Shown: one piece after another, positions 9,901 through 64,000 of the stretch | Layout of the letters: every line of letters starts with the position of its first letter | Position numbering within the stretch: position 1 is the stretch's first letter | NCBI GenBank assembly: GCA_050084515.1 | Contig: CM114271.1 | Location: forward strand, 28,148,001-28,212,000 | Direction of reading: 5' to 3' | Length of the DNA stretch: 64,000 nt | From: Blasia pusilla | Taxonomy: Eukaryota | The notes under the pieces: generated by a model | Seen by the model: only the letters and a program-made list of their open reading frames with translations | What the model was told of the DNA's origin: nothing | Databases searched by the model: none | Made by a program: the position numbers and the translations under genes

Positions 9901-12900
9901 TGATGATTTACATCATGACTAAAGCACCAAAGAAGAAGTCTTTTTGTCAGCTTTTAGATCTTCTAAGAAACCAAATACCTTCCCTGACTGCATCACTCCT
10001 CACCTTAAGAACCACCAAATTACTGTAGTATAACCGATTGATGTATAGGTAGTCTATGAAGTGAGTTAGTTCAGGGCATGTAAATTCGATCATCACACTG
10101 AATTGTTTATGTTTGTTTCTTTGGCAGAAATGTGTCATAAGTTACCCAAAGGAAAAGAACTAAGGTGAAATATGATTTAATGAACACTCTATGAATTCTT
10201 CCCACAATCCCAGAGCTGTCTTTCAAATCATCTTCTACGATCAACGGCCCAGATAGGTCCAGATACAAATATATTAGATGATACGGTCATGCGACAAAAA
10301 ACTACCACGAAGAGTGGGGAACATACCCCAAGGGCCGCTTCGATAAAACTTGGAAGCACAGACTCGATGTAAGGCCTTCCAACTGCTAATCCAACAATGC
10401 CAACCAGTTCAGTTGCGCGGGCACGAACAGGAAGATCCTCGTCTTTAGTACAAACCATGAAGTTTTGCAAAATATGCAGAACTTGCTCCACATACGGCAC
10501 AAAGGCCGACTCTGCTGCAGCTGCAGCTGACCCAATTGCAGACTGCACACAGGTTTCAAGAAAACTTCATGAACTGCTGTCATGCAACAATTCACGGCTG
10601 ACCACAAAAACAAAGCTATTATCTAGAGTCATCCTAACAGACAAGAATTGAGACTTCAAAACCATGCACAGGATGATTGACAGCACTACATATACAAACT
10701 ACTAGAGAACAGGACCTTTCACCTAGCCATGCCTGATCAGGAAAAGTGTCCCTTAATCACATATATCCTTCCGCCAGCCAATCCAAAGACTTCACAGTTT
10801 TAGTATCTGACATACAGCTGCACTCCTGTGGGCACCGAGTTCAAAGGATGTAAATTTCTAAACTTGATACATACCATGCATGTTTCCTGAAGATCTCGAC
10901 GATTGCTCTGCAGTGCCTCCAACAGTTTTTCCATGAGGGGACCCAAATAGGGAAGAATCTCTTCCTTCAAATTCTCACAAAATGCAGCCAAAGCATAGTA
11001 AGCCTTTTCCTGTAACAACAACAGAATAATTAAAACTAAATAAAAGCCATGAACCAAAGGATCAAAAGTTTGTGCTTCAGTGTCATAATAGAACTAAACA
11101 AGGAAGGGAACTTTACACTTGAACCACAGAAAAGGAGAGGGAAATTTCCTGTCCTCAACTGAGAGGTAAGTCCTAACTCAGACGGACGCCAGAAACCAAT
11201 CCATTTAGAACCACTGCAATCTCAGATTCAGACGCATCTTTTGACCTTGAAGTGTTGGTCAGACCTGGTGGTCCCTTCAACCTACACTGAAAAGTTCAAT
11301 TACGAAGGGACACAATTTCTGGGATTGGCCGTATCAACTCTGATACTCTCTTCATTAAGACATACACTTGTCAAGGCTATGTGCTCCCGAAAAGTACTAT
11401 TGACAGGACTAAACTCAACTCAGACTACATTCACACAAGTGGTCTCAACATCCACAAACATCTCATAGACATTAAATATTACTCACTTGCACTTCTGGTG
11501 ACGAGTCATTTAGGACCTCAAAAATACTGGGCAGAACCCTCTCATAATGCTCCGCAACCTCTGGTTGTAGATGTTCAGCAAACTGCCCCAATGCAAAGCT
11601 GGCTGCCCCTCGTACCAACTGTTCAGTATCTTTCAGGGCTTGAAGTACTAAAGTCAAAACAACCTCCAACTTACCTTTCATGGCTTCATAGCAACCTTCA
11701 GATATGACCCCCAAAGCCATCACTGCTGCCTCTCGCCAATTGAAGTCCACGTTTTGAATATTGGCAACAGCAAAGTTGAGGACAGAAGGAAAAACATGCT
11801 TCTTGGGGAGGCTCATTGCCATGGTATCCAAGACTTCTGCAGCAGCCCGATCAGAAGAAACATCGTCCTCACTATGCCTTGCGTTAGGTTCAGCTAGAAT
11901 AGGACACATCACAGTGAGAATCGGAGTGACTAACTTATGCTTGACCAGAGTTTTGGGTTTGTACTTCGCAAGCCAGGAGACAATCTGGATAGCCTGCATG
12001 TAAAAATCATTTTACAGAGTGAGTAATGACAACATGACATAGACTACTCTCAGCAAGTTTTCCTTGACTTGGACCCACTCCTTAGCACCCAAGAAAATTT
12101 AAGAGCCTAAAATGCGTTTACAGTTCAAAATTACCTGATACCGTGTGTTTGCCTCCAACGACTTGTTGGAACATACTTCCAAAGCAAACTGCACAATCAC
12201 TGGAATTGTGGGGCCAAGCAGTGGAGCAGGTGATTCCACAAGCTCATCAAAAATCTCAAATGCTAATATGGCCACGTCCTCATCACCACTTTCTAAACAC
12301 TGGCGAGAAACATTCAATATGGGTGCAATGAGCTCCCGGAACATCATCTGCAAGAAGAGCTACAGAATTAGTATAACTTGGAACAGAAAAGACTATCACT
12401 CAAATCATGGCCTTCCGAATACATTCTGGTGGTGAAAAAGGTACTGACATCAATGATATACCAGGAAACACATAAGTGTAGAAATGGCCTACATGAAGAC
12501 ACCTACCCAGTAGATCTACTGGAAGCACAATCACAAGAGAATAGTACAACAAACACCACATTTTATCATCAATGCCACAATTCTTCAGCTGGAGTAAAGA
12601 AACTTGTAATCCACATCATTGTATCAAAGAGGAGGCAGACTCACAACTTCTTGCTCAGTTTGAATATAGCCTACAAGAGCCCCAACTGCTCTGCACCAGA
12701 ACAGTCACAATAATCAATGGTCAGAAATGTACTTTTACAGAAAATATATCTCAACATGCAAAACCTTGACAAATGAAAGTAAGACCTTAGGAACAAAGGA
12801 AGACTTTGGAGCATATTTGGTAAATTTGCATGCAGACCACTCCAACAATCATCCAAGATTTACACATTAATTTGAGAATAACTGACAGGAAATATTTCCG

Positions 12901-50300: not shown

Positions 50301-52524
50301 ACATTAATGTTTGAATCTCTAGCATAGAAATATCTAATTTGAAAATTTATGGAGATCAAGTTCATTTGGCTATCATATTATGGTCATCTATTATTTCAAT
50401 GAAACAACCGTATGTGTTAAACTTCACTTGATAACCCTATTCAACTTTTTATCATAGAGAGTTCAAATTTCTTGTTCTCTATGTTCTCTATTGTAGGAAC
50501 ATAGAGAACATCTCCAAGAGCACAAAGATTATCTGATGCTATTGGAACTTTATCGATATGCGCGATATGATGTTGAGTATAATCTCTTGTGAGCACTATT
50601 GTAGGATCTTTCGCCGACTTCATATTACTGAACCATTAAGCTTGTGAGCTCATATGATTCCATGCACCAAAATCAATGGAATCGAGTCTTTCTTGACCAT
50701 TGTTCCCATATGATGAATCATAATAAAAAGTTGCTCAGTTTGTAAATGTTGTTGTTAATACTATCCTTGGTAATGTTGCTCTATATAACTTTGTTGTTGT
50801 AAGGCTTATGTTCTGATATCTGCCTTCCTCTTGAAGCAAAACTTTGCATAGTGATCCTTAATCCCACACTAATTGCAAGATCCAAGGATCCTCTGTTGAT
50901 GATCTCGATCCCAATAATTTCCACCATCACCACCTTGTGATTGTGTCTGGTACTCGTTCGTAGTTGATTGATTGAAGTTATGTTGAGTGCCTCTTCCTCC
51001 ATATGCTTGTTATCCACCACAGAAGCTTCTACCACGACTTTTATCTCTGTTTGATCAATTACCTCCAAATAGCGAACTCTCTTGCATACTAAACAAGCTA
51101 CTGCTACCTACTAGGCGTATCTCTTCACTAATTAACAGTGGAACTCAAAAGACTTGTAATCCTTTGGAAGACCTTGAAGAGAGAATAAAATGAGATCATC
51201 ATCTTCTATTGTTACTTCTATTCAACTCATCAACAATATGTCTGATACTCAAAATATAATGATTGATGTTTTGCGATCCTTTCCTCACTTTGTTTAATTG
51301 TTGTGGAAAACTTGAAATTACGTTCTTGTGAGTAAAATTGTTCTTCATGGAGTATTCTTAGACAATAATCATAGATGAGAAGCTAGATAAGCAATATTAC
51401 AATGTTTGGAAGTTTTGTATGAGATAATTTCTCATGGGTCACGAAGTATGGGAGCTTGTTATAGATGATGAGGTCAAACCAAAAGATGACTCAACAGACT
51501 TGAATGTTTGGGCTTGAAACAAAAGTGCAAGGCAAGTAATCCGCTTGATCAGTTCGCCAATGATTGGTCACATTCAAGATGTTGATACTCTGAAGGAAGC
51601 TTGGGATGTATTAGAAAAAATATTTCAATTGAAGCTTTCATGAATTTAATTTTGCTTATCTAGCGTCTCATTTGAGATTGCTATTGAGAAGAACTCCATG
51701 AAGAATGATTTTACTCACAAGAACGTAATTTCAGGTTTTCCACTACTCCAATTGAAGCATAGACCACTCCTAAATAGAAATTGACTTGAAATTTACCAAA
51801 ATTGATTAAAGATATAGAAGAACATGTCGAAATTGGCATGTAGAGAGCAAATTGCACAACTTTCCTTCACTAATTGCACTTTCCTACATTGAAATTGTTG
51901 TTGCAGGAGCTCAGAATGTCGAAATTGAGTGATTTTGGATGATTTGGAAAGCTCTCACCGACCATTTCAAGATGGTGAGAACTAGAATCCAACATAATTT
52001 TGTGTGATGCAGACCTAGATTTCTAAATCAACCGGAAAAACCATAAAAATTGCCTCCAAAGTTTTGTCATCATGAAAGCTCGGGCTGAAATCTTCTTTCA
52101 TGGAGATCTCCATGAAATTTCCTTCTCCCCTACTTTGATTATGCCTTCTCTTTCCTATGTTCTCTCCTCAAACACCAAGAATTTCAATCGATGTTCTCCT
52201 ATCGCTATGATATCATATAGGAAACTGCTAAAGAAGCATAATTGGTGGAATACGACTCTCACATTTACACACCACCATGGAGAACAAAATTTTCCATTGA
52301 GTGAATGAGTGGAGGCTGATTCCCTTCTCAATTATATAGGGTGTGAACAAAAACCCTAACCCTAATCGTAACCATCATCTCGAGTTAGACTATTTGTGAT
52401 TAACAAGCCCTACTTCAGATAATCGTGCTTAACTTACTAACCAAGATTAACCTTTTTTCTTTCGTGTGAGTATCAAATATAGCAGTTCTGATGTCAGATG
52501 AACTTGAGTATATCTCAGATTTCA
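47379..52524 (-). mobile_element. decayed near-full-length Ty1/copia LTR retrotransposon
   Basis: Direct-repeat LTRs at ~47379-47640 and 52216-52524 (shared CACCACCATGGAGAACAAAATTTT...CCCCTTCTCAATTATATAGGG). Degenerate tRNA-Met PBS at 52204-52215 (plus GCTATGATATCA vs GCTCTGATACCA). Minus-strand gag, protease (DFGAWNHM), GAG-pre-integrase (HKRIGHIN), integrase, RT (RLKKALYGLKQAQKAWY) and RNase H (ASKKQPTV) in copia order. No convincing TSD. Confidence 0.9.
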
Positions 52525-55138
52525 TGAGGAAGGAGATGTTTTGAGCTTGAGTACATCCGCGTAGGCTGGAGTCGCGGATGGGTTGCAGATCAGGAGATTG
52601 GGGGCAAGTATGCATGAGGGAAGCCAAAAAATAGACTCAAAACCCAGCTCTGTGCCCCCAATCTCTTCCCCCCCTCTTGCCGAGATCCGTAGAGGGGAGC
52701 AAGAGTGTGACACGGATCAAGAGGTTTGCATTTGGACTTTTTCTGTGTGAAAACTTAGTGTAGAGTGAGTTAGGATTAGGATGAATGAATCTCGATGTTA
52801 TGGTGTATAGCTCTCTATACCTATTGTGGGATACCATCCTAATGTGATATCAAATTTGAGAGGAGAATCAAAGTTCTGGGATGAAGTATGTTCCATAAAG
52901 AGTGACTACTCTAAAATTACACTCATGAGTACAATTTTATAGAGATAGTATAATACTTGGTGGGATGATCATCCCACAAGGTATTATTCTACCTTTGTTA
53001 GAAATTTGGGGTTAACTATTCGAGTATTCTATATTTTTTAGAGCGTGAAATTGTTGAAATGTGAAATTTCCGAAGTGTGAAGGTTTTAGTTTGAGAACTC
53101 ATAGGTGAAATTTGGAGATCGAACTTAGAATCCTGAAATGTTGTCTAGAAGTGCAAAAATTATTCTAAGTTGTGCTTGGATTTCTCATTTAAATTCTGAC
53201 ATTGTGGGTCTTAGTCGCAAGTATCGTTAGTGACCATGTTGGGGTGCTATAATACTTTGAATTCAAATTAACTATATGGATAATAGTACTTTCGAATGCA
53301 ATTTTTCCACTTGGCGGCAACTAATTTGAAATGGAATTCTCCCCACATGGTATTATAATACCTTCACTAGAAATGTTGCTTGTAAATCTGGGTCATGCAA
53401 TCTCCAAAATCTTTAATTTTTGAAGTGTGCAACTGCTGAAGGTCTTAGCTTGAGAATTTAGGGTCAAATTTAATCATTTCATAAATCTTTCACAAAATCT
53501 TGAAATGTTGCTTGGAAATAAAATTCTTCATAAATTTGTGCATCTCTCATTAATCTTCTATCCTTTGAATTTGGCCTTCCATGAGTATCAATGTTTATTA
53601 TTCAATTATTATTATTATTATTTATTTTCCACGAGGAGCTTCTTTGGGCGATGGCTTTTGAGAGATGACAACTAATCATAGGCCAAACAAATTTTGGCGA
53701 GTGGATAATATTATCAATCTCTTCTTAAAAATTGCTTTCAAACATGGAAGGAATGTGTGTTTGAATATTCTATACACAAACAAGTCATGAATAAACCACA
53801 ATCTAATGTCATATTATCTTTTCTTTCCGAAATTTTTTTTGCTTTCAGATTGCAAGCAGATATCTTATTTGATCGATACCTAATGGTAGGCCAATCCGAC
53901 CAATAGTGTAGGGATTAAGAGCTTCTCTTGAACAAATATCTTGGGCAATAAAAGCTAATAAAAGGGCACACAATTTAATATTATTGGTGTTTTGTCTAGC
54001 TAAAGTCTTGTAAAACATTGAAGGAATCTATTTAAGGATTTTTTTTATAAAAGTGGTGATGAACAAACCAAAATCCAAGATCATATTCTTCTTTCAATTT
54101 TTGAATGCCAACCACGTCTTAGATCGATTAGGCTGGTATTCTGGCAAGAGAGAGTAAGAGAGGAGAGGAAGAGAGGAAGAGAGGAGAGTCTCTCTTCAAA
54201 AAAAAGGGCCAAATCCGCCTCCTCTCTTCAAAACTTTTTGACATATTTGAAATTTTTGTTTGCTTTCAAATTTAGGAAATCTTTAGAAGAGAGTAGGTAG
54301 TGGTCCACATTTGGCCCTAAAAAAACCTCCTCTTTCGTGGGGGCGAGAAAAAAGGAGACATCATAAGACCACCCTAAACATTTTTCCATCACTGTTCATG
54401 TGAGCCTAAGTTTCTTAACATTCCCTGTATCGGTCAACAAAAAGCAGTGCCCTTGGTATTTTTGTTGGAGGACCACCCGGATGGGTACCTCTCTTTTTGC
54501 AGGGATTGTTGCCTGCATCATGGCCTCCCCTAAATTGCCCCATAACCAACTTTCTGTCGGTTATGAATGGTGTCTGCTCAAGACCAACTTTCTGAAATGT
54601 GAAAAAAATCATATCCTAAGGCTCAAAAACCGAGAAGCTGCACCCCTCCCAACCCGTAAGAAAGCTCACTATAAGAAACGAAAGATTTTTAGAAGTGATT
54701 TTCTTCCACCCTGCACCCACGACGATCTAACGGGTTGGGAATCCGAAATGGCAATTCGACAGGTAGTAGGAATCTTGCACATCTTAGACAAGAAAAGAAG
54801 CCTACAACTGGTTGGACGAATGAAGGGGAACGAGCCAAAAGTCAAGAAGCCCGCCACAATGCGTCAGAAGTTGGTCTCACCGGAATAGAGTCCGATCACT
54901 CAAGGAGTCAACCTGTCGGAATCCGAGAGGTTTCCTGGAAATGGTTAAAAAGTTGCAGTGGGCAAAAAACAAAAAGTCGGAATCATACGGGTTGCAGAAT
55001 TGCAATTCTGAGTAGCTAAAAGAACACAATCCACAAGTCCAAAAACATATTCCAGAAAAGTTTTACAAACACCATTATGGGTTGAAAAAATCTTGTCTTT
55101 TATTACCTCCAAAGGAACCTCGGAAATGTACATTGAAC

Positions 55139-55420
55139 CTAGTCTATGATTTCTTCAGCCTCGTCATCTATAAATTTACTCCTAACTCTCCTCGGTGATG
55201 AGTACCAAAGGAATGTCTTGGGATTCAAGTGGCTCCTCCGGCGGTTGTAGACGGGATCGAAAATGTTGGCGGTCGAGAGCCTTGGCCCCCTAGGTACACC
55301 ATAACGGTCCCATGTAACTGTCTCGAGTCCCACCGCCTTCCTCGGCAAAGATACCTTGTACGCGCTCGAAATGTGACACCCATCCAAAGATATCAATATC
55401 CGCTCCGCCCCGGTAATACC
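55139..55420 (-). other. coding-like segment (small third gene or terminal exon) of unknown function
   Basis: Open frame ending ...NPKTFLWYSSPRRVRSKFIDDEAEEIID*, preceded by a candidate acceptor (TGCCATAG) next to the palindrome repeats. Confidence 0.3.
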
Positions 55421-56489
55421 ACTATGGCAACCGACGGTAGAAGGAATCCAACACGTCGAGAAGAAAAGAAGCCTACGCCGCTTTACGAGTTGAGGGAAGG
55501 TGCCAAGGAAGAAGCCCGCCAGATCGCTCGATCCGAAAGGGTCCGATCGGCAACTGTCGGAATCAGATAGGTTGCCTGGAGGTGGTAAAAGGGTCCGATG
55601 GTCAAAAAGCGAAAAGTTGCAAGGAGGATAAATCCGACGGGTTGCAGTGGTCATAAAGTGAAAATTGCAAGCAGGAGAAATCCGACGGGTTGAAAAGTAG
55701 AAGACCGTGGAGTACATAGACGATCACATTCGAAAAGACAAAATGATTAGCAAACATTTACAAGCACCACCATCGATCGAAAAAATCTTCTGCTTTATAT
55801 TATCCGAAAAAAGCTCGAATCAGACATTTGATCTATTCTATGAAATCTTTTGCCAAATTATCAAAAAACTCCCTACTCCAAACGCTGCAGTCAAGCTGGG
55901 TCGTTGAGTTCTTTGAACTCACTCGTCATCGTCCGAGAGCTCTTGCAAAATCACTTTCGGCCTTGCCCTCCCGATTTTGGGAATCGTTGGAAGTGACGAT
56001 GGAGTCACTACCAAGGGTGGCTCTCGAACCGGAGCTCTCGGCCGTGGAGAGTTGTACGCCCCAACGAGCCTTTCAGATTCGCCTTTTCCTCCTTGCAAAG
56101 GTCAAACAGTTCTCGCCTTCCCTCGAGGGCAGAATGTTTCTGCCACTCTGCCAGCGCCTCGATACTCGCCCCGAAAGGCCCACTAAGTCAAACACCAAGT
56201 CACCCGGCCTTGAGCAGAGCTCGATGAGCGTTTACATCGTGGTGGCGACTTTTCCTTCCTCCCGAAGTATGGGGTATGTCTTGCATGTAAATTCCGGGGA
56301 ATTGTACAAACTATCTAAAATTTGCACCCATCGAGCATGGATCCACAGGATCCTCGGATCTTGAACACTGGAAATTGTGCTCGGGCGAACGGGCAAAGAC
56401 ACGAGGGAGTGGTCCATCTGAAAATCAGACGAAACAATGTCGAAACTAAAGAAGTCGCCTTGAGAAGATTTTCAATAATCGACTTTGGA

Positions 56490-56855
56490 TCAACTCGCCG
56501 GAGTCCGACGGGTTGTTTTATCCGGACCAACCCGCCGGAACCCGACGGGTTGCGCTTGCTTTTGGTTTTCCAAGTTGATTTTGGTTTTGGATGCAACCCG
56601 TCGGAAGGCGACGGGTTGTCGCTCAGACCGCCCATGCTCGCTTTGAGAGCAACCCGCCCGATAGCAACCTGTCGCTATTAGACGGGTTGCATCCAAAACA
56701 AAATCAACCGCAACACGCCGGGTTCGACGGGTTGCGTACACCGCGTTTTCCTGTGTATGTGGGAAAGATGCAACCCGTCGGAAACCGACGGGTTGCTCTC
56801 ACCGAGCATGGGTCGCTCTAAGCCAAAGAACCCGTCGCCTTCCGACGGGTTGCTC
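56490..56855. repeat. array of 25-bp palindromes in a cargo-gene intron
   Basis: About 8 copies of CAACCCG(T/C)CGGA-N-(T/A/C)CCGACGGGTTG, e.g. at 56528 and 56771. Confidence 0.9.
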
Positions 56856-58959
56856 ACGGACAAAAAAAACCCAGATTGACTCATTCTACACATCATTATA
56901 AGATAATTGAAATTATTGTACAGGAATTGAGCCTTACCCGAATTTGACTCGTCGCGGATCGGAGTGGGTACTCGTTTTTGATGATCCACGACAGCCGCCC
57001 TCCACTTTAGCGACCTCTTGACGCGATCGGAGGTTGAAGAGCTCGTCCCTGCTCCCTCCAAATCAACACCAAGAAGCAGCCCCTGTCACTTAGATAGGCG
57101 TCTGCAAAGGAGAACAAAAGTGCAATGTGGTCATAAGTGAGCGGCAGATTCCACTCAGGTACCTCGTCCGCCGGATTTTTGCCCCAAAGTCGCAACTCCG
57201 AGGGCAGATCGGCGATCAAGAGATCCACCGCAACCTCTTCCACCACTCCATTCACCGTCCAGGCAACGTGCACGTTTGGTTGGAGCTTCCGTCCCAGCGT
57301 GGTCAATTTTTTGATGGTAGTTGTCGACGCTTGAGAATCAAGTCGTTCGGCTCATCCAAGAAAGAGGTGAATCAAGGAGGACGCTTGTCCGGGTGGTTGT
57401 TTGTCTGTGTCTTCCCAAGGATGATGGGCTGTATTCTCCTTGGGACAACCCGGGCACCTCTCGCTTCCGCTTCTCCCTAGTATGGGGACGGCTTGTCGGG
57501 GTTTCTATGACCTCGGATTCTGGTGGCGTTTTCTTCGCCGAGGACCTGGTCCGACCCTCTCTCTCTGCTCGTCCGGACGATTCCGCCTCTGGCCTCTCAT
57601 CTTCAGGCTCTCTTTGGGAAGTCTCGGCCTCTGAATTTTTCCCTCCCCTCGCCTTGCCTTTGAGACCATTTGTGGATTTGTCTTTGGCTGTCCAGGACCT
57701 TGAAGCCAACTCACTGTTCTTGTGGGCTCGCTTCTTCAGCATCTCCTCCGAAGAAGTCTTCAGGCTGGACGAAATTGGGGATGTCGTCTTGTCCTGAGGC
57801 CACTGCATCATGAAGCACTCGTAAGTCCTTATCCGTGATGTCTTCAGGGTCGTTGAAGTCGAGCCAAATGGGGCAATTCTCCACCTCCCAATCCGACATG
57901 TGCTGACCCATCTCCACGTGTACATGGAGAATGTCTCTACATCCGCGGCGAAGCCCACAATTTCAAGGTCGCCGGTAATTTTCCCCACGATCTGCGTTCT
58001 TACATCGGACGAGGTACCGAATACCATCCGTTGGCGCAGCTTTTAGTCGAACATTATCGGCCGTCGCTCTGTAGATCTCGCTTCTTCTTCGCTTGATCCC
58101 GTTTGTTACCCTCTACTTCTTCGTCAAGCTCGCCGAGGGAGGACGCAAACCTTGAACATGGTCTTGAATCCAGGGTTCTTGGTTGGCTTGTCCCGGATGT
58201 CGCCGAGCCAAACCTCGTAATCTCCGAACTTTCAAGGTTTGCTTCCGCGAAATGGGCTCTAATCTTCCGAGCTCCGCTTTGCATCCCCAAAGACGGACTT
58301 CCCGATTACCGCAACGCGCCCCTAACGACCATTCGCGTAGCCAATGCGAGATCATCGGATCGGACACACCGAGGATGGTGTGCCGCCCTCTTCCGGGCCT
58401 CTCGAGCCTCGAGATCGATTTTCATCATCGTATCCTCCGAACTCGCTATAATCCCGGATAACGCAAAACGATGCACGCAATCCAGCGACACTTTCTCCCC
58501 AATCCGACCATGCGGATCTTCATCCTCTTCCGCCGACGCTTGATAATCTCCTTGAGCTCCTTGTAGAACTCCCGGACCAAGTTGGGGTTGAGAATGCTTG
58601 ATGTATCGCTGCATCTTGCTCGCCGTGTATTTCGTTGCAATAGATAAAGCACTTGATGAATTTGGCGCTCAGACGCAGATACCTTCTCCCTCCGCTCGCT
58701 CCGCCCCAGCAACGCTTTTCTTCGCGGCCCTGTATCTTCGACCAGCAAAGGATGGTTACGGTTGCATCTTGAGAAATAAACTTGTTTGCCCAAGTTTTCT
58801 TCTTAACTGAGCACCCTTTGCAAGCATCTCGATTGATGAGGGCATCGCCCAAGAACCCCAAGACTCTCTGGGTGCGCCCTAAGCACCTTCCTCACCCGAT
58901 CGCGATCCTGGATCCAATGGTGGGTGACATTCCCTTCCGATACAATCCGCACATCCAAA

Positions 58960-59770
58960 CTCAACCCGTCAGGAAATTACATGGGTTCCTCGCGAACCCG
59001 CCGGACTCGACGGGTCGCCACTTCAGGGTCGGATTCTAGCAACAAGCTAAATGATGCAACTGTCGAGTCCGACGGTTTGCATTCAGATTTGCTAATGCAG
59101 TAAGCAATTTCGTCGGACTCGGCGGGTTCCGGATCGCGACGCCGGATGTTTTTTAAGATTGCAACTCGTCGGACTCCGACGACTTGTTTGATTGAACATA
59201 GATTTAACTAGTTTTGGCCCAAAGCAAACCGCCGGAGTCCGATAGGTCGCTTGTGAGGTTGTTTTTAAGAATGCAACTCGTCGGACTCGACGAGTTGCTC
59301 GAGTGATTGTAGGTTTAGAAGGTTTTTTCCTAAAGCAACCCGCCGGAGTCCGACGGGTTGCTTGCCTCGGCTATTTTCCCCATATCAACCCGCCGGAGTC
59401 CGACGGGTTGATTTCGCCAAAAATTTCAAGGCAAGCAACTCGTCGGCTCCGGACGGGTTGCTTTGGGGCAAAAACCTTCTAAACCTGCAATCACTCGAGC
59501 AACTTGTCGGAGTCCGACGAGTTGCACTCTTCAAAAAACATCCTCACAAGGCGGCCTGTCGAGCAACCTGTCGGACTCCGACGGTTTGCTTTGGGCCAAA
59601 AACTAGTTAAATCTATGTTCCATCAAACAAGTCGCCGAGTCCGACGAGTTGCAATCTTAAAAACATCCGAAAAGCGTGTTCTAGCAACCCGCCGGAGTCC
59701 GACGAGTTGCTTTTCGCTAAACAAACCTAACCCATTCATCAATCGAGCAACTCGCCGGAGTCCGACGAAA
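58960..59770. repeat. palindrome array containing a ~530-bp inverted repeat, in a cargo-gene intron
   Basis: About 15 motif copies; arms 59143-59368 and 59428-59669 are reverse complements centred on the palindrome at ~59385-59411. Confidence 0.9.
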
Positions 59771-61230
59771 GGCGTAAAGTGTTAAAGATACTCACGTGTT
59801 CATGGCATGCATTGCCATCTCCACCGTCACCATGTGATGAGGGTATGGGTAAAGGACCACTGCCTTCACGCAAAAATGTGCCTCCAATGAGTTGGGGCGC
59901 TCCTCCGCAAACTTGGTCCACGCCATGAACCGTGATTTCCATCCCGGATGAAGAAATGCGATTCCTCATCCGGCTGAATTTCGTGCCCTCAACTTGCCTT
60001 TCAAGTCCTGGTCTCGCATCCTCCGAATGTGTCAAGATTTTCCAAGTCCTCCTCGGTAACAGAGCTTGGGTTCCATGCTCGCCGTAAAAGGCTGAACATA
60101 GAAGGGAGGAAAGTCTGTCCACGAGGATGTTGTCGCCGCCGATTTTTTAGCTTTTTGCGATGTCCTCGTCTTGATCAGATTTTGCGGACGTATTCCATTG
60201 TCCTTAATCGCACAAAGTGGAATCTCGGGCGTTAGGCCCTCCATGAGTGCCATCCGCTTTACCACTGTCAAAACCGGGACAAGAGGAATAAGCTACACTG
60301 AAATCCCAATGAATTGCAATTCACATAATTAAAAACCTAACCTCATTACCCGCCGAAAATGGAGTCGGTTTCTTGACCAAACTAACTTGTTCGAGACAGG
60401 GTGGCAAATCGACCGGGAACTCGTCGATCCGATAGAGGTCGATGTCCTCCGCCGGGCTTGGAGTCGAGAATGACCGCTCTCCGGCTTCTTCGCCATGTCC
60501 ATCATCTCCACGGGCGCGGTCCTCATGACCTCGTCGTCATCGATTTGAATTGGTGTTGTTTCCACTATGTTGATTGTGTCCCCGACTTCGTGGGGGGACA
60601 TTTCCGCATCTCAACACTTGCGGTTGGACGGGCTGGGCTATCGCCAATGGCTATCGCTTTTTCCCGCCCGCTTTAGCCGATTCTCGCCTCCTCACCGACG
60701 GCCCGGCGCTTCTTTTTCTCTCTTTTCGCCGGCGATCCTTTTCTTCAAGGCCTGTGATGTCTCGGCCTCTTCGCTCGTTTATCTAGCGCCGCTTGAACAC
60801 GCCTCTGAAGCACTTGGTTGTGCATCTCCGCTTCCCTTTCCCGCCTCGATTTCCTCGCTGCCTAATTTCATTCGCCTTAACGAGGCCCAGGAGAAGCCGA
60901 CGCAGAGTCCTAATGGACTTGGGAGTGAAGCTCCCACTTGTTGGCTTGTGTTTTTTCCTCGTCATTTTTGCCGGAAATGCCTCCACCTATGCCCACGACA
61001 AATCCCTTGATCGTTGCCTTTTGATGTCGAGATGGGAGCTCGTCTCGCCTTGATGGTTAGCTCGATCGTCCCTATATCGCTCGGTCGAACGCCTCGCCTC
61101 GTTCCCTCGCTATCGACTCGCGATGTGTCGCGCGCGTGAAATGCCCCTTCAGATCGATCGGGCCTGCGGGAGAGTGAGGAGTGAGGAATGAAGATCGCGA
61201 AATGAGAAACCGGAAATGAGCGATTTCTGC

Positions 61231-61240
61231 CCTATTTATA
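61231..61240 (-). promoter_or_regulatory. TATA box for the ParB-MTase gene
   Basis: TATAAATAGG on the minus strand, followed by a pyrimidine-rich leader. Confidence 0.5.
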
Positions 61241-61319
61241 CTTTTCTAGCCGTTGGGCTGACCGTTGGGCGTCGCCCTTTCGACGCGCGTGTCGAATGTT
61301 ACGGAAGTCCGGACGTGAA

Positions 61320-62040
61320 AAATCGCAACCCGCCGGAGTCCGACAGTTGCGCCTCGCCATCCTGGGCACGTCGCCACGTGCGCGAGCAACCCGTCGGAGA
61401 CCGACGGGTTGAGCGCCTCCATCGTCTTCGGAAAAGAACGCGAGGTACCCGCGCAACCCGTCGGAGACCGACATGTTGCGTGCCTCCGCCATCCTGCGAA
61501 CGTCGCCACGTGCGCGAGCAACCCGTGGGAGACCGACGGGTTGAGCGCCTCCGTCGTCTTCAGAAAACAACGCGAGGTACCCGCGCAAGCCGTCGGAGAC
61601 CGACATGTTGCGCACCTCCGCCGTGTTTGGGACGGGAACGGGACGTATTTTGGGCAATCCGTCGGAGACTGTTGGGTTGCACGCTTCCCTCATCAAGGGT
61701 TAGGAACGATGGCTTCCCGTGCAAGTCGTCGGAGTATGGCTGGCTGCACCACAAGGCGACGCCCTTGCGCAACCTGTTGGACGGCGACGGGTTGCATGCC
61801 TCATCGTCTTTGGGCTAAAAGGCGAGGCACCCGCGGAACTCGTCGGGAATAGACGGTTTGCACGCCTTTGACATCTTCGAGCAAGAAGGAGCGGTATCCC
61901 AGCAAGTCGTCGGAGAGCGACGGATTGCTCGCTTCGACAATGTTTAGCAGAAGCGTGCAACCCGTCCGATGCCGACGGGTTGCGTGCTTCGTAAGTAAGC
62001 CGGGTAATTTCGAGTTACCAAGGACTCCGACGGGTTTCAA
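61320..62040. repeat. palindrome array with a 133-bp tandem duplication between the divergent genes
   Basis: About 12 motif copies at ~60-67-bp spacing; ~61355-61487 is duplicated at ~61488-61620. Confidence 0.85.
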
Positions 62041-62191
62041 GTGATGCGCAACCCTCTGCTTCCCAAATCTGGTAACATATTGCAACACAATTGAATGTGT
62101 TACAAAATTGGATCCATTGTGTCAGACAATCTCCCCCACCGAATTCATCTTGTCAGTAAAAATCTGTCAGGAGTATCTATTTCCTATTCAC

Positions 62192-62246
62192 TATAAATTA
62201 AATATTCTCATTCTCATTCTCATTCTCATTCTCATTCTCATTCTCC
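62192..62246 (+). promoter_or_regulatory. TATA box and (ATTCTC)n leader for the transposase gene
   Basis: TATAAAT at 62192, then about 7 tandem ATTCTC units. Confidence 0.5.
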
Positions 62247-62435
62247 TCCCGTAGGAATCTTCTTGGAATGGATAATTATGTTAAGCTCACTTGTGGCACT
62301 CATCTGGCGGCCCTTCCTCAATCAGAAATCATCCGACCCCAAGCTCGTGAGTCTTTCGTAGCAGTGGATGAAAATTTTCTGTCTGTTTGATTTCTTCTTC
62401 AAATTGGAACCATCTTTGTATCCAAAGATGTTAGG

Positions 62436-64000
62436 GTGGAAGGTACGGAAGACATAATAGGTAAGACGGTCCAGCCAGTGACCTTGGACCGTAAAGTATG
62501 GAATCTCCTACCTATCGCAAATGGTCAATACAGAGTTTACGGCCTGCCCCTGAATTCATCTGTTTCCCAAGTAGACGGTCTAGAATTTCCTAGTGCTCCG
62601 AGCTCTACGTTTGCAACTCCAAGCTCTGCAGATCCGGCTTCGACTCCAACTTTGCACACTCGTAACAATGTTGTTCTTCCTGAAGAGATTCCGGATGTTA
62701 TCAACCTCAGCGGATTTGTCGGACACCAATCGGGCCCTATGTCCGCCTACTCGTTCCTCTTGTGATTATCAGGCAATAGTTTGCTCGTCTCTGCCCTTGA
62801 AAATGTTCAAGCACATTCTTGTCGATTTAGCCGCCACCCCGCATTTACGATGGTAATTGCATTTTTGAGTTGCCTCCACTTGTCGCTGCTCCTGCTCAAA
62901 AGAAGGATGGAGGCGCTGAAGGGTATGGGATGTAAAGTCTGATTGTCATCGATGGTGCAGGCTTCAACGGACAAAGTGCTTCCATCCCGATGGTCCTTGG
63001 ATTGTCTCCCGCCGCCAATGCGTGGGAGCCTTGGAGTGTAGAAGTCCAAAGCATGCCCGTATCTAGAGCGCAACGGGCGAGTCAATACGCCATAATTCCC
63101 CCAAGAATGCAGAAACTCCATACGAGGTGGGTGCCACAATACGCCGGGAGGCCATCGATGTCCTCATTGTCGCACGCCTTCGTTGGAGCGTGTCCCTGCA
63201 TACATATTTTTCATTGTCCATGACTTGGGCTCCACGCCGAGTATACAAGGTCGGGCGGTTCATGTTGGCTCCCACACTCATCCCGTGACCGATGCAATTC
63301 AAAGACACATCAAGGAGGATGTGGCGAAGAAAGTAGCCGAGGTCTTTGAAACTCTCCGGGTTCAAAGCCTGGGGTGATCAAGCTCACAACGGCATCACAA
63401 ATTTGTGAACAATTGCTTGGAATCCCTGGATAGGGCGAGATCACGCCGGTTGAGGAGAAACAACTCTAGGAAAATCTCGCATTTCTCGCTGATCCTGAAT
63501 GCTTCTGGAATTTGCTACGCCGATACTGAGTTCGATGGAAAGACGGCCGAAATGGATGCCATCGCGTAATCAAGGCCAACTCCAGATTTCCATTCATTCA
63601 GAGATGGCGTTCATGGGCCAAGGAGGCGAGGGATCCAGGGCCTATGTCTTCAAAATGTCAACCACAGGTTCCTCGAGTGGCCTTGATCTTATAGATCGAA
63701 TGAGGGAAGGGAAAGATCTTTACGGGAGCTGGGTCAGCTTTGATATTTGCTCAGAGTCTTTGAACGGATGGTTGACGATGGGTGCTCACGTTTATGACCA
63801 TGTGGAGAAGGGACTCAAAACTATATTTGTGTGTGAAGTAAAGCGTAAGATGTTGGCGGTTTGAAGATGTCTTTGGATACTCTTATTGGAGGTGGTGAAG
63901 GAAAACAAAAGGCCACCTCCGGAAATTTATGGGTTCATGGCGGATAATGCACAACCTGGGTGGATTGCTATCCGGGAAGTGTTGGGTGGAGAGGTTCAAC
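62436..64000 (+). pseudogene. Mutator-like (MULE) DDE transposase, disrupted as assembled and truncated by the window end
   Basis: Cys/His motifs (CVGALEC, HVGSHTHPV), then YVFKMS...GLDLIDRM...WVSFD...WLTMGAHVYD...IFVCEVK and YGFMADNAQPGWIAIREV. The FD and MAD acidic motifs fit the first two MULE catalytic aspartates; the family assignment is from memory. Confidence 0.6.

Follow-up and report, generated by a model that had tools for sequence, protein, structure and literature searches.

Sequence-specific self-recognition of transposons is understood, so far, from flowering plants, where VANC proteins, TnpA and the transposase of AtMu1 carry it out. The sites of VANC21 form tandem repeats in the introns, intergenic and terminal non-coding regions of VANDAL21, where the density of the motif matters; VANC motifs are 9 bp long, arrayed in one orientation and non-palindromic (PMC5735166). 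TnpA and the AtMu1c transposase, according to a preprint, bind clusters of their cognate motifs and activate their own copies (10.64898/2026.08.24.746577).

Here we analysed a window of 64 kb (the whole stretch of DNA studied, positions 1-64000), in which one decayed copy of an element displays the same non-coding motif-array architecture, its relatives being found only among liverwort proteins. What differs is the type of site, a long CpG-rich palindrome, and the candidate partner protein, which is unrelated and unannotated. We regard it as quite possible that the palindromes are family-specific cis-elements, namely two-half-site docking arrays for a dimeric DNA-binding protein, most likely one encoded by the element.

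The element and its four palindrome clusters

Judging from its sequence, the element is a decayed DNA transposon in which both genes are broken. The labels "intron" and "promoter" used below are deduced from GT/AG-like junctions, breaks in open frames or in homology, and TATA-like boxes, rather than from transcripts. The features are as follows, with the strand given where a feature has one:

54650-55692: left zone, 3′ of the accessory gene, with decayed palindromes and two exact solo half-sites
54909-54933, 54970-54994, 55545-55569: examples of decayed left-zone copies
55634-55644, 55682-55692: the exact solo half-sites of the left zone
54700-55880: old tandem duplication of about 700 bp (54700-55200 vs. 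55400-55880), 76% mean column identity
55920-61210, minus strand: accessory ("cargo") gene, pseudogenised, from homology and breaks in the ORFs
56491-56852: 7 palindromes arrayed in intron 1 (putative, about 56418-56937), which belongs to the accessory gene and has splice-like junctions
58962-59776: 14 palindromes arrayed in intron 2 (putative, about 58953-59795)
59140-59672: foldback (large inverted duplication) in intron 2, about 530 bp, 90% mean column identity
61232-61241, minus strand: TATA-like box upstream of the accessory gene, by eye
61326-62037: array of 11 palindromes and a half-site at 62027, between the divergent genes
61355-61618: two copies of a 132-bp higher-order unit, 93% identity
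62191-62204, plus strand: TATA-like box upstream of the transposase gene, by eye, with the ATG at 62268
62268-64000, plus strand: transposase gene, of which the window holds the 5′ part, from homology over three reading frames

Alignment of 35 copies gave the CpG-rich, 27-bp consensus GCAACCCGTCGGAGTCCGACGGGTTGC, which matches the consensus of the initial annotation and extends it by a G/C pair. The more than 30 copies claimed there are reached once degenerate copies are included (35 in total: 7 in intron 1, 14 in intron 2, 11 in the promoter region and 3 in the left zone), but clean copies, with both arms at no more than two mismatches, number only 23. All four clusters were found at the positions that it gave, and the spacing, which it put often at about 50-67 bp, was borne out, being 37-71 bp with a median of 62 and with no helical phasing (Rayleigh p 0.25-0.69). 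The promoter array, flanked by the two divergent TATA-like boxes, is the largest and best kept. The left terminal zone is indeed a cluster but consists only of decayed palindromes plus the two exact solo half-sites, the best arrays being internal.

The full 25-mer with up to three mismatches was found 15 times, always within 56491-61982 (0 expected; maximum of 0 in 100 shuffles). All 40 matches to the 11-nt half-site with up to one mismatch fell inside 54909-62037 (0.21 expected, maximum 2), and the 54 kb of flanking host sequence within the window had no such near-exact half-site. When two mismatches were allowed, 65 of the 68 half-sites lay inside 54650-62037, the remaining three being unpaired two-mismatch matches. 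The palindrome motif is genuine and, within this window, confined to the element. As the initial annotation had stated, the motif is missing from the exons: none of these 68 half-sites fell in the putative exons (55920-56417, 56938-58952, 59796-60292, 60350-61000 and 62268-64000). Taken alone, this absence is poor evidence, because the copies represent a few local duplications (four clusters, not some 60 independent events) and because no gene would survive an array in one of its exons. Two further candidate non-coding stretches, 60293-60349 and about 57351-57716, hold no copy of the palindrome.

Duplication history and conservation of the arrays

The arrays were formed and remodelled through tandem duplication, as indicated by the 132-bp repeat, the kinship of spacers within clusters and the duplication of about 700 bp that carries the left-zone palindromes. 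Each 132-bp unit in the promoter region comprises two palindromes and two different spacers, with CACGTG in one spacer, and the spacer pairs within this higher-order repeat are 0.84-0.93 alike. The intron-2 spacers are mirrored across the foldback, the arms of which (59140-59398 and 59398-59672) meet at a central palindrome (59386-59410). The symmetry extends outward past the arms at lower identity, and no target-site duplication could be read from the sequence at the foldback ends. Since the symmetry fades outward with no sharp end, the foldback arose by inverted duplication in place rather than by the insertion of an element. The initial annotation called the spacers unique, which does not hold within the promoter array and intron 2; they are unrelated solely between clusters, where their similarity (at most 0.65) equals the maximum of the shuffled null.

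In unit alignments, which were anchored on the palindrome and are thereby biased toward its columns, mean pairwise identity in palindrome vs. spacer columns was 0.753 vs. 0.497 for the promoter units (n=11) and 0.731 vs. 0.382 for the intron-2 units (n=13). Comparison of the foldback arms with each other gave 15 differing columns of 130 in palindromes vs. 41 of 147 in spacers (p=0.0009); leaving out a single 15-column indel reduced the contrast to 15/130 vs. 26/132 (p=0.089). Palindromes are 0.72-0.75 alike between clusters and 0.73-0.77 within a cluster, in copies that are non-independent, most having been made by few duplications. The CpG positions are the best-kept part of the palindrome, with 30 departures in about 280 cells at the 8 CpG positions vs. 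131 in about 665 at the other 19. CpG is strongly depleted in the genome around the element, with observed/expected ratios of mostly 0.2-0.5; the element itself is an island rich in CpG, about 9 kb long, with ratios of 0.8-1.4.

An unlikely explanation of these data is a functionless minisatellite. Slippage, unequal exchange and inverted duplication induced by the palindrome would have multiplied a GC-rich palindromic unit, and the copies would be uniform because they arose recently or because gene conversion acted between copies prone to form hairpins. The clear duplication history of all arrays agrees with such a neutral origin, as do the death of both genes in this copy and the position of the large palindrome, centred exactly on a short one, as would be the case if large inverted repeats are seeded by short ones. 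However, the palindrome is common to the four clusters while their spacers resemble each other only at the level of chance, which argues against neutral decay, since this should erode both alike. The preservation of the motif CpGs despite the CpG-depleted surroundings also speaks against it.

Slightly less likely than a neutral origin is that the palindromes matter as structure, either by cruciform extrusion or through transcription of the arrays, chiefly the intron-2 foldback, into long hairpins or dsRNA that feed small-RNA silencing of the family. Foldback structures and hairpin silencers are represented by Drosophila FB and maize Mu killer, and the intron-2 foldback hairpin would be comparable to a Mu killer-like trigger. 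Its arms, being 90% identical, make a long, near-perfect inverted duplication of element sequence, and the folding energy of the intron-2 RNA is −529.9 kcal/mol, compared with −270 in shuffled sequences (z −30.75; none of 20 shuffles as good). Non-coding tandem repeats of VANDAL elements are, moreover, efficient targets of RdDM (PMC10398659). Against this, compensatory change between the arms of single palindromes is absent (paired cells 80.3% vs. 80.2% when shuffled; 9 double changes vs. 7.1 expected), and in the promoter array and intron 1 the dyad symmetry between units is only partial (spacer self-complementarity 0.05-0.71). A silencing trigger would be a by-product and would leave unexplained why the palindrome outlasted the spacers in four places. 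This outlasting, together with arms that do not covary, favours two half-sites read by a dimeric protein over a hairpin function: independent recognition of half-sites predicts the lack of covariation, and a selected hairpin does not. The three central columns are the least informative (0.33-1.21 bits), and this variable, cluster-specific 3-nt centre is expected of an uncontacted spacer between half-sites.

Candidate binding proteins

Returning to docking arrays, we infer the binding, the identity of the binder and the effect of its binding alike. The arrays would have grown as units of about 50-67 bp were locally duplicated in tandem at sites that tolerate repeats, namely the two introns, the upstream region common to the divergent genes and the 3′ terminal zone, with one large inverted duplication added to the tandem growth in intron 2. 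If the protein works like VANC of VANDAL21 and TnpA of Spm, dense sites would enable it to locate its own family, which it would then activate or release from silencing. Some observations sit less well with docking sites: gene conversion promoted by hairpins could likewise keep the palindromes alike, their spacing is not in helical phase, and VANC motifs have one orientation and are non-palindromic.

The candidate binders are the orphan accessory protein and the transposase with its putative zinc-finger N-terminus; Pfam, NCBIfam and PDB profiles identified no DNA-binding domain in either. The closest relatives of the transposase are a Calypogeia fissa protein (53% identity) and an unnamed protein of 1050 aa with a SWIM-like C-terminus. 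No Pfam family, the MULE catalytic domain included, was matched by its relatives P0001-P0003 at E up to 0.01, and P0003 gave SWIM alone (E=2.5) at E up to 10. By eye, P0003 shows CxC...CxH close to its C-terminal end, and P0002, P0003 and the window have a conserved block, C..C...CPA...H.G.H.HP, in common. The structure model of the transposase (pLDDT 41.0) and the AlphaFold model of the accessory protein (pLDDT 41.5) were both unusable.

The accessory gene is interrupted by in-frame stops: six in one frame of the main exon (57714-58952), two in 59795-60292 and one in 56938-57351. Its product is homologous to the Riccia sorocarpa hypothetical protein R1sor_013312 (P0008), and in these searches it matched no named family and no known domain; the orphan has so far been seen in liverworts only (the Riccia protein and its relatives). 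An extension of the docking-site reading, which we hold to be improbable, is that a liverwort transposon lineage evolved its own module for self-recognition and anti-silencing independently of VANC, in which a dimer of the orphan binds the palindromes and keeps the CpGs of the element unmethylated. Such binding would explain both the CpG-rich island and the best-kept motif CpGs.

It is very improbable that host transcription factors read the arrays as captured enhancers responsive to stress. The CCGAC-type cores in the palindrome arms, which we take to be DRE/CRT-like, could suggest this, as could five RCCGAC and two CACGTG in the promoter region, where their densities are 5.3 and 2.1 per kb (flank: 0.24 and 0.06). 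Yet the RCCGAC form needs the promoter-specific centre triplet and occurs once per intron array, the conserved unit of 27 bp is far longer than such cores, and none of the copies falls in the host DNA of the window, which amounts to 54 kb.

The initial annotation took the palindromes for binding or methylation targets of an element-encoded ParB-methyltransferase or of the transposase. Recognition by an element protein fits the conservation, the shared consensus, the arms without covariation and the VANDAL21-like pattern; the part concerning parS-like sites and a ParB-methyltransferase, the least probable reading of all, found no support, because no such domain was detected by Pfam, NCBIfam or PDB profiles and the dyad centre varies between clusters. 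ParB was found neither in the 26 and 40 ORFs of the window (Pfam up to E=5; NCBIfam) nor, by Pfam with E up to 10, in P0010, the read-through translation of exon 59795-60292, which belongs to a decayed gene and for which no intact homologue was found. Methyltransferase searches of P0008, P0007, P0006, P0012 and A7 gave no Pfam, NCBIfam or PDB-profile match, the best PDB-profile E-value for the accessory protein and its homologues being 0.63. Overall, neither family was detected in the 26 and 40 ORFs, three read-through translations or the intact homologues P0006-P0008 (Pfam up to E=10, NCBIfam, PDB profile).

What speaks for a methyltransferase is a D-L-L-I-x-D-x-P stretch, followed by W and G-C-x-L-V, in the accessory C-terminal exon, conserved in 4/4 relatives, and methyltransferase clusters among the ESM Atlas look-alikes of the accessory protein at 0.82-0.91, where scores below 0.9 are leads only. 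By eye, the D-L-L-I-x-D-x-P region resembles the catalytic-loop region of N6/N4 methyltransferases. The catalytic motif of these enzymes has a proline pair and an aromatic residue, which are missing in the accessory protein. In the copies of intron 2 and the left zone, the dyad is centred on GANTC (16.6 and 8.1 per kb, respectively; n=14 in intron 2), but this is lacking in most promoter and intron-1 copies (n=2 in each region), so that the centre is cluster-dependent and offers no fixed core for methylation or recognition. In the ParB-methyltransferase fusions known to us, the ParB part is not a reader of parS. Eukaryotic ParB-HTH-Dam fusions are reported from chlorophytes and chytrids (PMC4738411).

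Comparison with described systems

Like bacterial parS, the site is palindromic, with two half-sites suited to a dimer; unlike in the ParB-parS system, no ParB domain, ParA partner or HTH was detected here, and tens of sites form tandem arrays inside a eukaryotic transposon. Among 185,579 bacterial and archaeal genomes, arrays of the palindrome never occurred, and isolated copies were found at 89 loci (one copy in 88, two in L036).

FB has long inverted repeats built from short sub-repeats, and Mu killer is transcribed as a hairpin that stems from part of a Mutator-type element. The locus shares with them long inverted repeats of short sub-repeats, but its foldback is intronic, has ends without target-site duplication and fades outward in symmetry. 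Here short palindromes seem to have seeded a large hairpin within a gene of a transposon, a change by which a site for activation could become a trigger of silencing.

In En/Spm, TNPA sites occur also as inverted pairs. As with Spm/CACTA TnpA and AtMu1, clusters of cognate motifs would let an element-encoded protein find and activate its own family, with density mattering (10.64898/2026.08.24.746577); in those elements the clusters are terminal, whereas three of the four here are internal and the right terminus lies beyond position 64000.

If our reading is true, the motif-array strategy would be old or recurrent in land plants, and a defined 27-bp site with two candidate proteins would make a testable pair. 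The closest counterpart is VANDAL21 (Hiun) of Arabidopsis (PMC5735166, PMC10398659). It differs in a 9-bp oriented motif in place of a 27-bp CpG-rich palindrome; one array here has become a large inverted duplication, no named family is detectably related to the accessory protein, and the host is liverwort-like, not a flowering plant. VANDAL21 is a Mutator-type element with accessory genes, and an accessory gene is present here too. Both elements carry a short, dense motif, family-specific in VANDAL21 and here confined to the element within the window, in fast-evolving tandem repeats, placed in introns, upstream of the transposase gene and in terminal non-coding parts, with the coding parts left free of it.

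The palindrome and its placement

The palindromic motif proved genuine and far above chance, the full pattern with ≤3 mismatches occurring 15 times vs. 0 expected. Half-sites, i.e., single arms, were found 40 times at ≤1 mismatch vs. 0.21 expected, all 40 within 54909-62037, and at ≤2 mismatches 65 of 68 lay inside the element. The initial annotation had counted more than 30 copies; this figure stands if degenerate ones are included (35 aligned copies, with the consensus GCAACCCGTCGGAGTCCGACGGGTTGC), and it drops to 23 when both arms must have ≤2 mismatches. The aligned copies fall into four clusters, namely putative introns 1 (n = 7) and 2 (n = 14) of the accessory gene, the promoter region between the two divergent genes (n = 11), and a left zone 3′ of the accessory gene (n = 3). 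The relevant features are:

about 55920-61210, minus strand: accessory ("cargo") gene
61232-61241: TATA-like box of the minus-strand gene, read by eye from the sequence
62191-62204: TATA-like box of the plus-strand gene, read by eye from the sequence
ATG at 62268, plus strand: 5′ part of the transposase gene, cut by the window end

The promoter array is located between the two divergent TATA-like boxes. Just as had been claimed, the motif is restricted to non-coding parts, with no copy in the putative exons, the exon, intron and promoter limits being inferred solely from frames, homology and GT/AG-like junctions. The motif is likewise missing from two further stretches that may be non-coding (60293-60349; about 57351-57716). 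All copies in the left zone, an old ~700-bp tandem duplication, are decayed, and two solo half-sites accompany them. A scan of bacterial and archaeal genomes revealed the palindrome at 89 loci as single isolated copies, except for two at one locus (L036), and no arrays.

Array architecture and apparent constraint on the palindrome

Centre-to-centre spacing of the palindromes is 37-71 bp (median 62), and helical phasing of this spacing was tested with a negative result. The spacers had been described as unique, which is contradicted by a higher-order repeat in the promoter and a foldback in intron 2. The promoter unit of 132 bp comprises two palindromes and two different spacers and is repeated at 93%, and older 66-bp units are still discernible (spacer identities 0.65-0.93). 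The intron-2 array is folded back on the palindrome 59386-59410 as its centre, the inverted arms 59140-59398 and 59398-59672 being 90% identical. Because the foldback ends (59134/59672) lack a target-site duplication, as read by eye, and the symmetry fades outward, the foldback is, as judged from its sequence, an inverted duplication made in place. The same observations rule out an inserted MITE or foldback element, which is also countered by the arms being unlike the left terminal zone except for the motif. The intron-2 RNA has a predicted fold of −529.9 kcal/mol (z −30.75), and the foldback would likely be a liability for the element; non-coding VANDAL repeats are described as prime RdDM targets (PMC10398659).

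Spacers compared between clusters show a similarity of at most 0.65, not above shuffled controls. The palindromes are as alike between clusters (0.72-0.75) as within a cluster (0.73-0.77), though the spacers are unrelated. In unit alignments anchored on the palindrome, the palindrome columns are much better preserved than the spacer columns; identity in palindrome vs. spacer columns is 0.753 vs. 0.497 for the promoter and 0.731 vs. 0.382 for intron 2, all comparisons being drawn from a single copy of the element. Between the foldback arms, 15/130 palindrome columns differ vs. 41/147 spacer columns (p = 0.0009); minus one 15-column indel, the spacer count becomes 26/132 (p = 0.089). Within the motif, information content is highest at the CpG guanines and at the A-A in either arm. 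Departures from the consensus number 30 in about 280 cells at the eight CpG positions vs. 131 in about 665 elsewhere, and, as with the other constraint figures, the copies behind these counts derive from few duplication events and so are not independent. The three central columns have the lowest information and are cluster-specific. Selection for a hairpin was rejected on a negative arm-arm covariation test, in which paired cells made up 80.3% vs. 80.2% in shuffles.

The two genes and the setting of the element

The window DNA is eukaryotic nuclear and intron-containing, and an Rfam search of the whole window gave no family at gathering score. The two divergent genes occupy a GC-rich block from ~54.5 kb to the window end (GC 0.44-0.56 vs. 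0.31-0.48 elsewhere in the window); the element continues past this end, so that our description covers its part in the window. All 1-kb bins of 55001-64000 have a CpG observed/expected ratio of 0.75-1.42, whereas in the background (1-54000) it is mostly 0.15-0.55, with a few short bins at 0.8-1.06. Further away in the window lie:

3-587, left window edge: hAT transposase dimerisation domain (E 2.2e-4, at the Pfam cut-off)
11472-12011, minus strand: HEAT-repeat exon of a host gene

Adjacent to the element on its left, at 54195-54320, is a small inverted repeat resembling a hairpin (GGGCCAAAT... / ...ATTTGGCCC, with flanking GA-rich runs); to judge by its sequence, it could be a MITE or a piece of the element's left terminus. 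Another inverted repeat, 51300-51746 (arms of 100 nt, 82% complementary, 247 nt between them), resembles a MITE and bears no relation to the palindrome motif. The left-zone duplication has a minus-strand open frame, 55142-55423, between its two halves, with the acidic tail …FIDDEAEEIID. This frame may be the final exon of another small gene, the third; it resembles nothing else in the window and matched no Pfam family, and the idea that it is a paralogue of the end of the accessory gene was rejected for lack of similarity to that gene.

The transposase is closest to a protein of Calypogeia fissa (53% identity) and to two unnamed proteins of 332 aa and 1050 aa, the longer of which has, close to its C-terminus, a SWIM-like CxC...CxH. 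Pfam recognised none of the three; therefore, the tentative label of a Mutator-like element rests on signatures read by eye, without a family match. ESM Atlas gave no match for the transposase piece, and the AlphaFold model of the transposase relative P0002 was unusable (pLDDT 41.0). A (TCATTC)n microsatellite at 62205-62245 separates the TATA-like box of the transposase gene from its ATG.

The accessory protein has three genuine relatives, among them Riccia sorocarpa R1sor_013312 (P0008; BLASTP E 7e-9 over 290 residues). Three of the six matches in the representative search (P0004, P0005, P0009) were dropped as spurious, being bacterial Ig-repeat proteins, and a search for relatives of P0008 that are longer or of similar length returned P0008 itself alone. 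Element proteins were identified neither by Pfam, applied to 26 + 40 + 3 window translations and homologues, nor by NCBIfam or PDB (by profile and by sequence), and the AlphaFold model of P0008 was unusable (pLDDT 41.5). At the start of the main exon, a Cys-rich stretch, 58806-58880 minus (residues 37-59 of the read-through exon P0011), matches a GRF zinc finger below threshold (Pfam E 0.21) and is a possible nucleic-acid-binding module.

Both genes are dead in the window copy. Each main exon of the accessory gene stays in a single frame interrupted by in-frame stops (two in 59795-60292, six in 57714-58952, one in 56938-57351), and the transposase homology switches among three frames. The transposase N-terminus has a conserved Cys/His block (63147-63308, plus strand) in which the window copy reads V-P-A vs. 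C-P-A in both homologues, a further sign of an inactive copy. Because the element is a CpG-rich island and yet five of the nine in-frame stops of the accessory gene are TGA, this copy is of recent origin, or protected from decay driven by methylation, or was originally even richer in CpG.

Interpretation of the arrays and comparison with known systems

Because a single consensus is maintained in all four clusters, its half-sites conserved independently of each other and its centre free to vary, the palindrome is best read as a putative protein recognition element of two half-sites multiplied into dense arrays. A neutral minisatellite would agree with the duplication history of the arrays, but it conflicts with the conservation of the palindromes across clusters whose spacers are unrelated.

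The initial annotation proposed that the palindromes are binding or methylation targets of a ParB-methyltransferase encoded by the element, or of the transposase. The ParB-METHYLTRANSFERASE claim found no support: neither a ParB nor a methyltransferase family was found in the ORFs, read-through translations or homologues (Pfam, NCBIfam), and the best hit in a PDB profile search had an E of 0.63. By eye, a D-L-L-I-x-D-x-P ... W ... G-C-x-L-V stretch conserved in the accessory protein is reminiscent of N6/N4 methyltransferases in their catalytic-loop region, but the canonical residues are missing from it; the ESM Atlas results for the accessory piece also include weak methyltransferase leads. 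In intron 2 and the left zone, GANTC is often found at the dyad centre; however, it occurs only twice in the promoter region and twice in the intron-1 region, and this cluster-specific distribution rules it out as a conserved target. Sites for host factors are disfavoured, as the enrichment of RCCGAC and CACGTG is confined to the promoter version of the array.

As all clusters but one are internal, the accessory protein seems, by analogy, a slightly better candidate binder of the putative two-half-site element than the transposase. In the full-text literature, four 11-mers of the motif matched 53 papers, which look like primers or constructs by the titles of the 10 listed, none concerning the motif itself, and searches on a ParB-methyltransferase transposon in liverworts and on liverwort Mutator-like elements gave nothing on the window element. 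In Arabidopsis, the VANC21 targets of VANDAL21 occupy introns as well as intergenic and terminal non-coding regions and grew by tandem duplication (PMC5735166); the window arrays agree with them both in placement (introns, shared upstream region, terminal non-coding zone) and in growth by tandem duplication. Furthermore, according to a preprint (10.64898/2026.08.24.746577), it is motif density that guides TnpA, and likewise the AtMu1c transposase, to copies of their own family, and the dense arrays in the window element fit this density rule. What is new here is a palindromic, CpG-rich site of putative function, associated with a different accessory protein and found in a different plant lineage.
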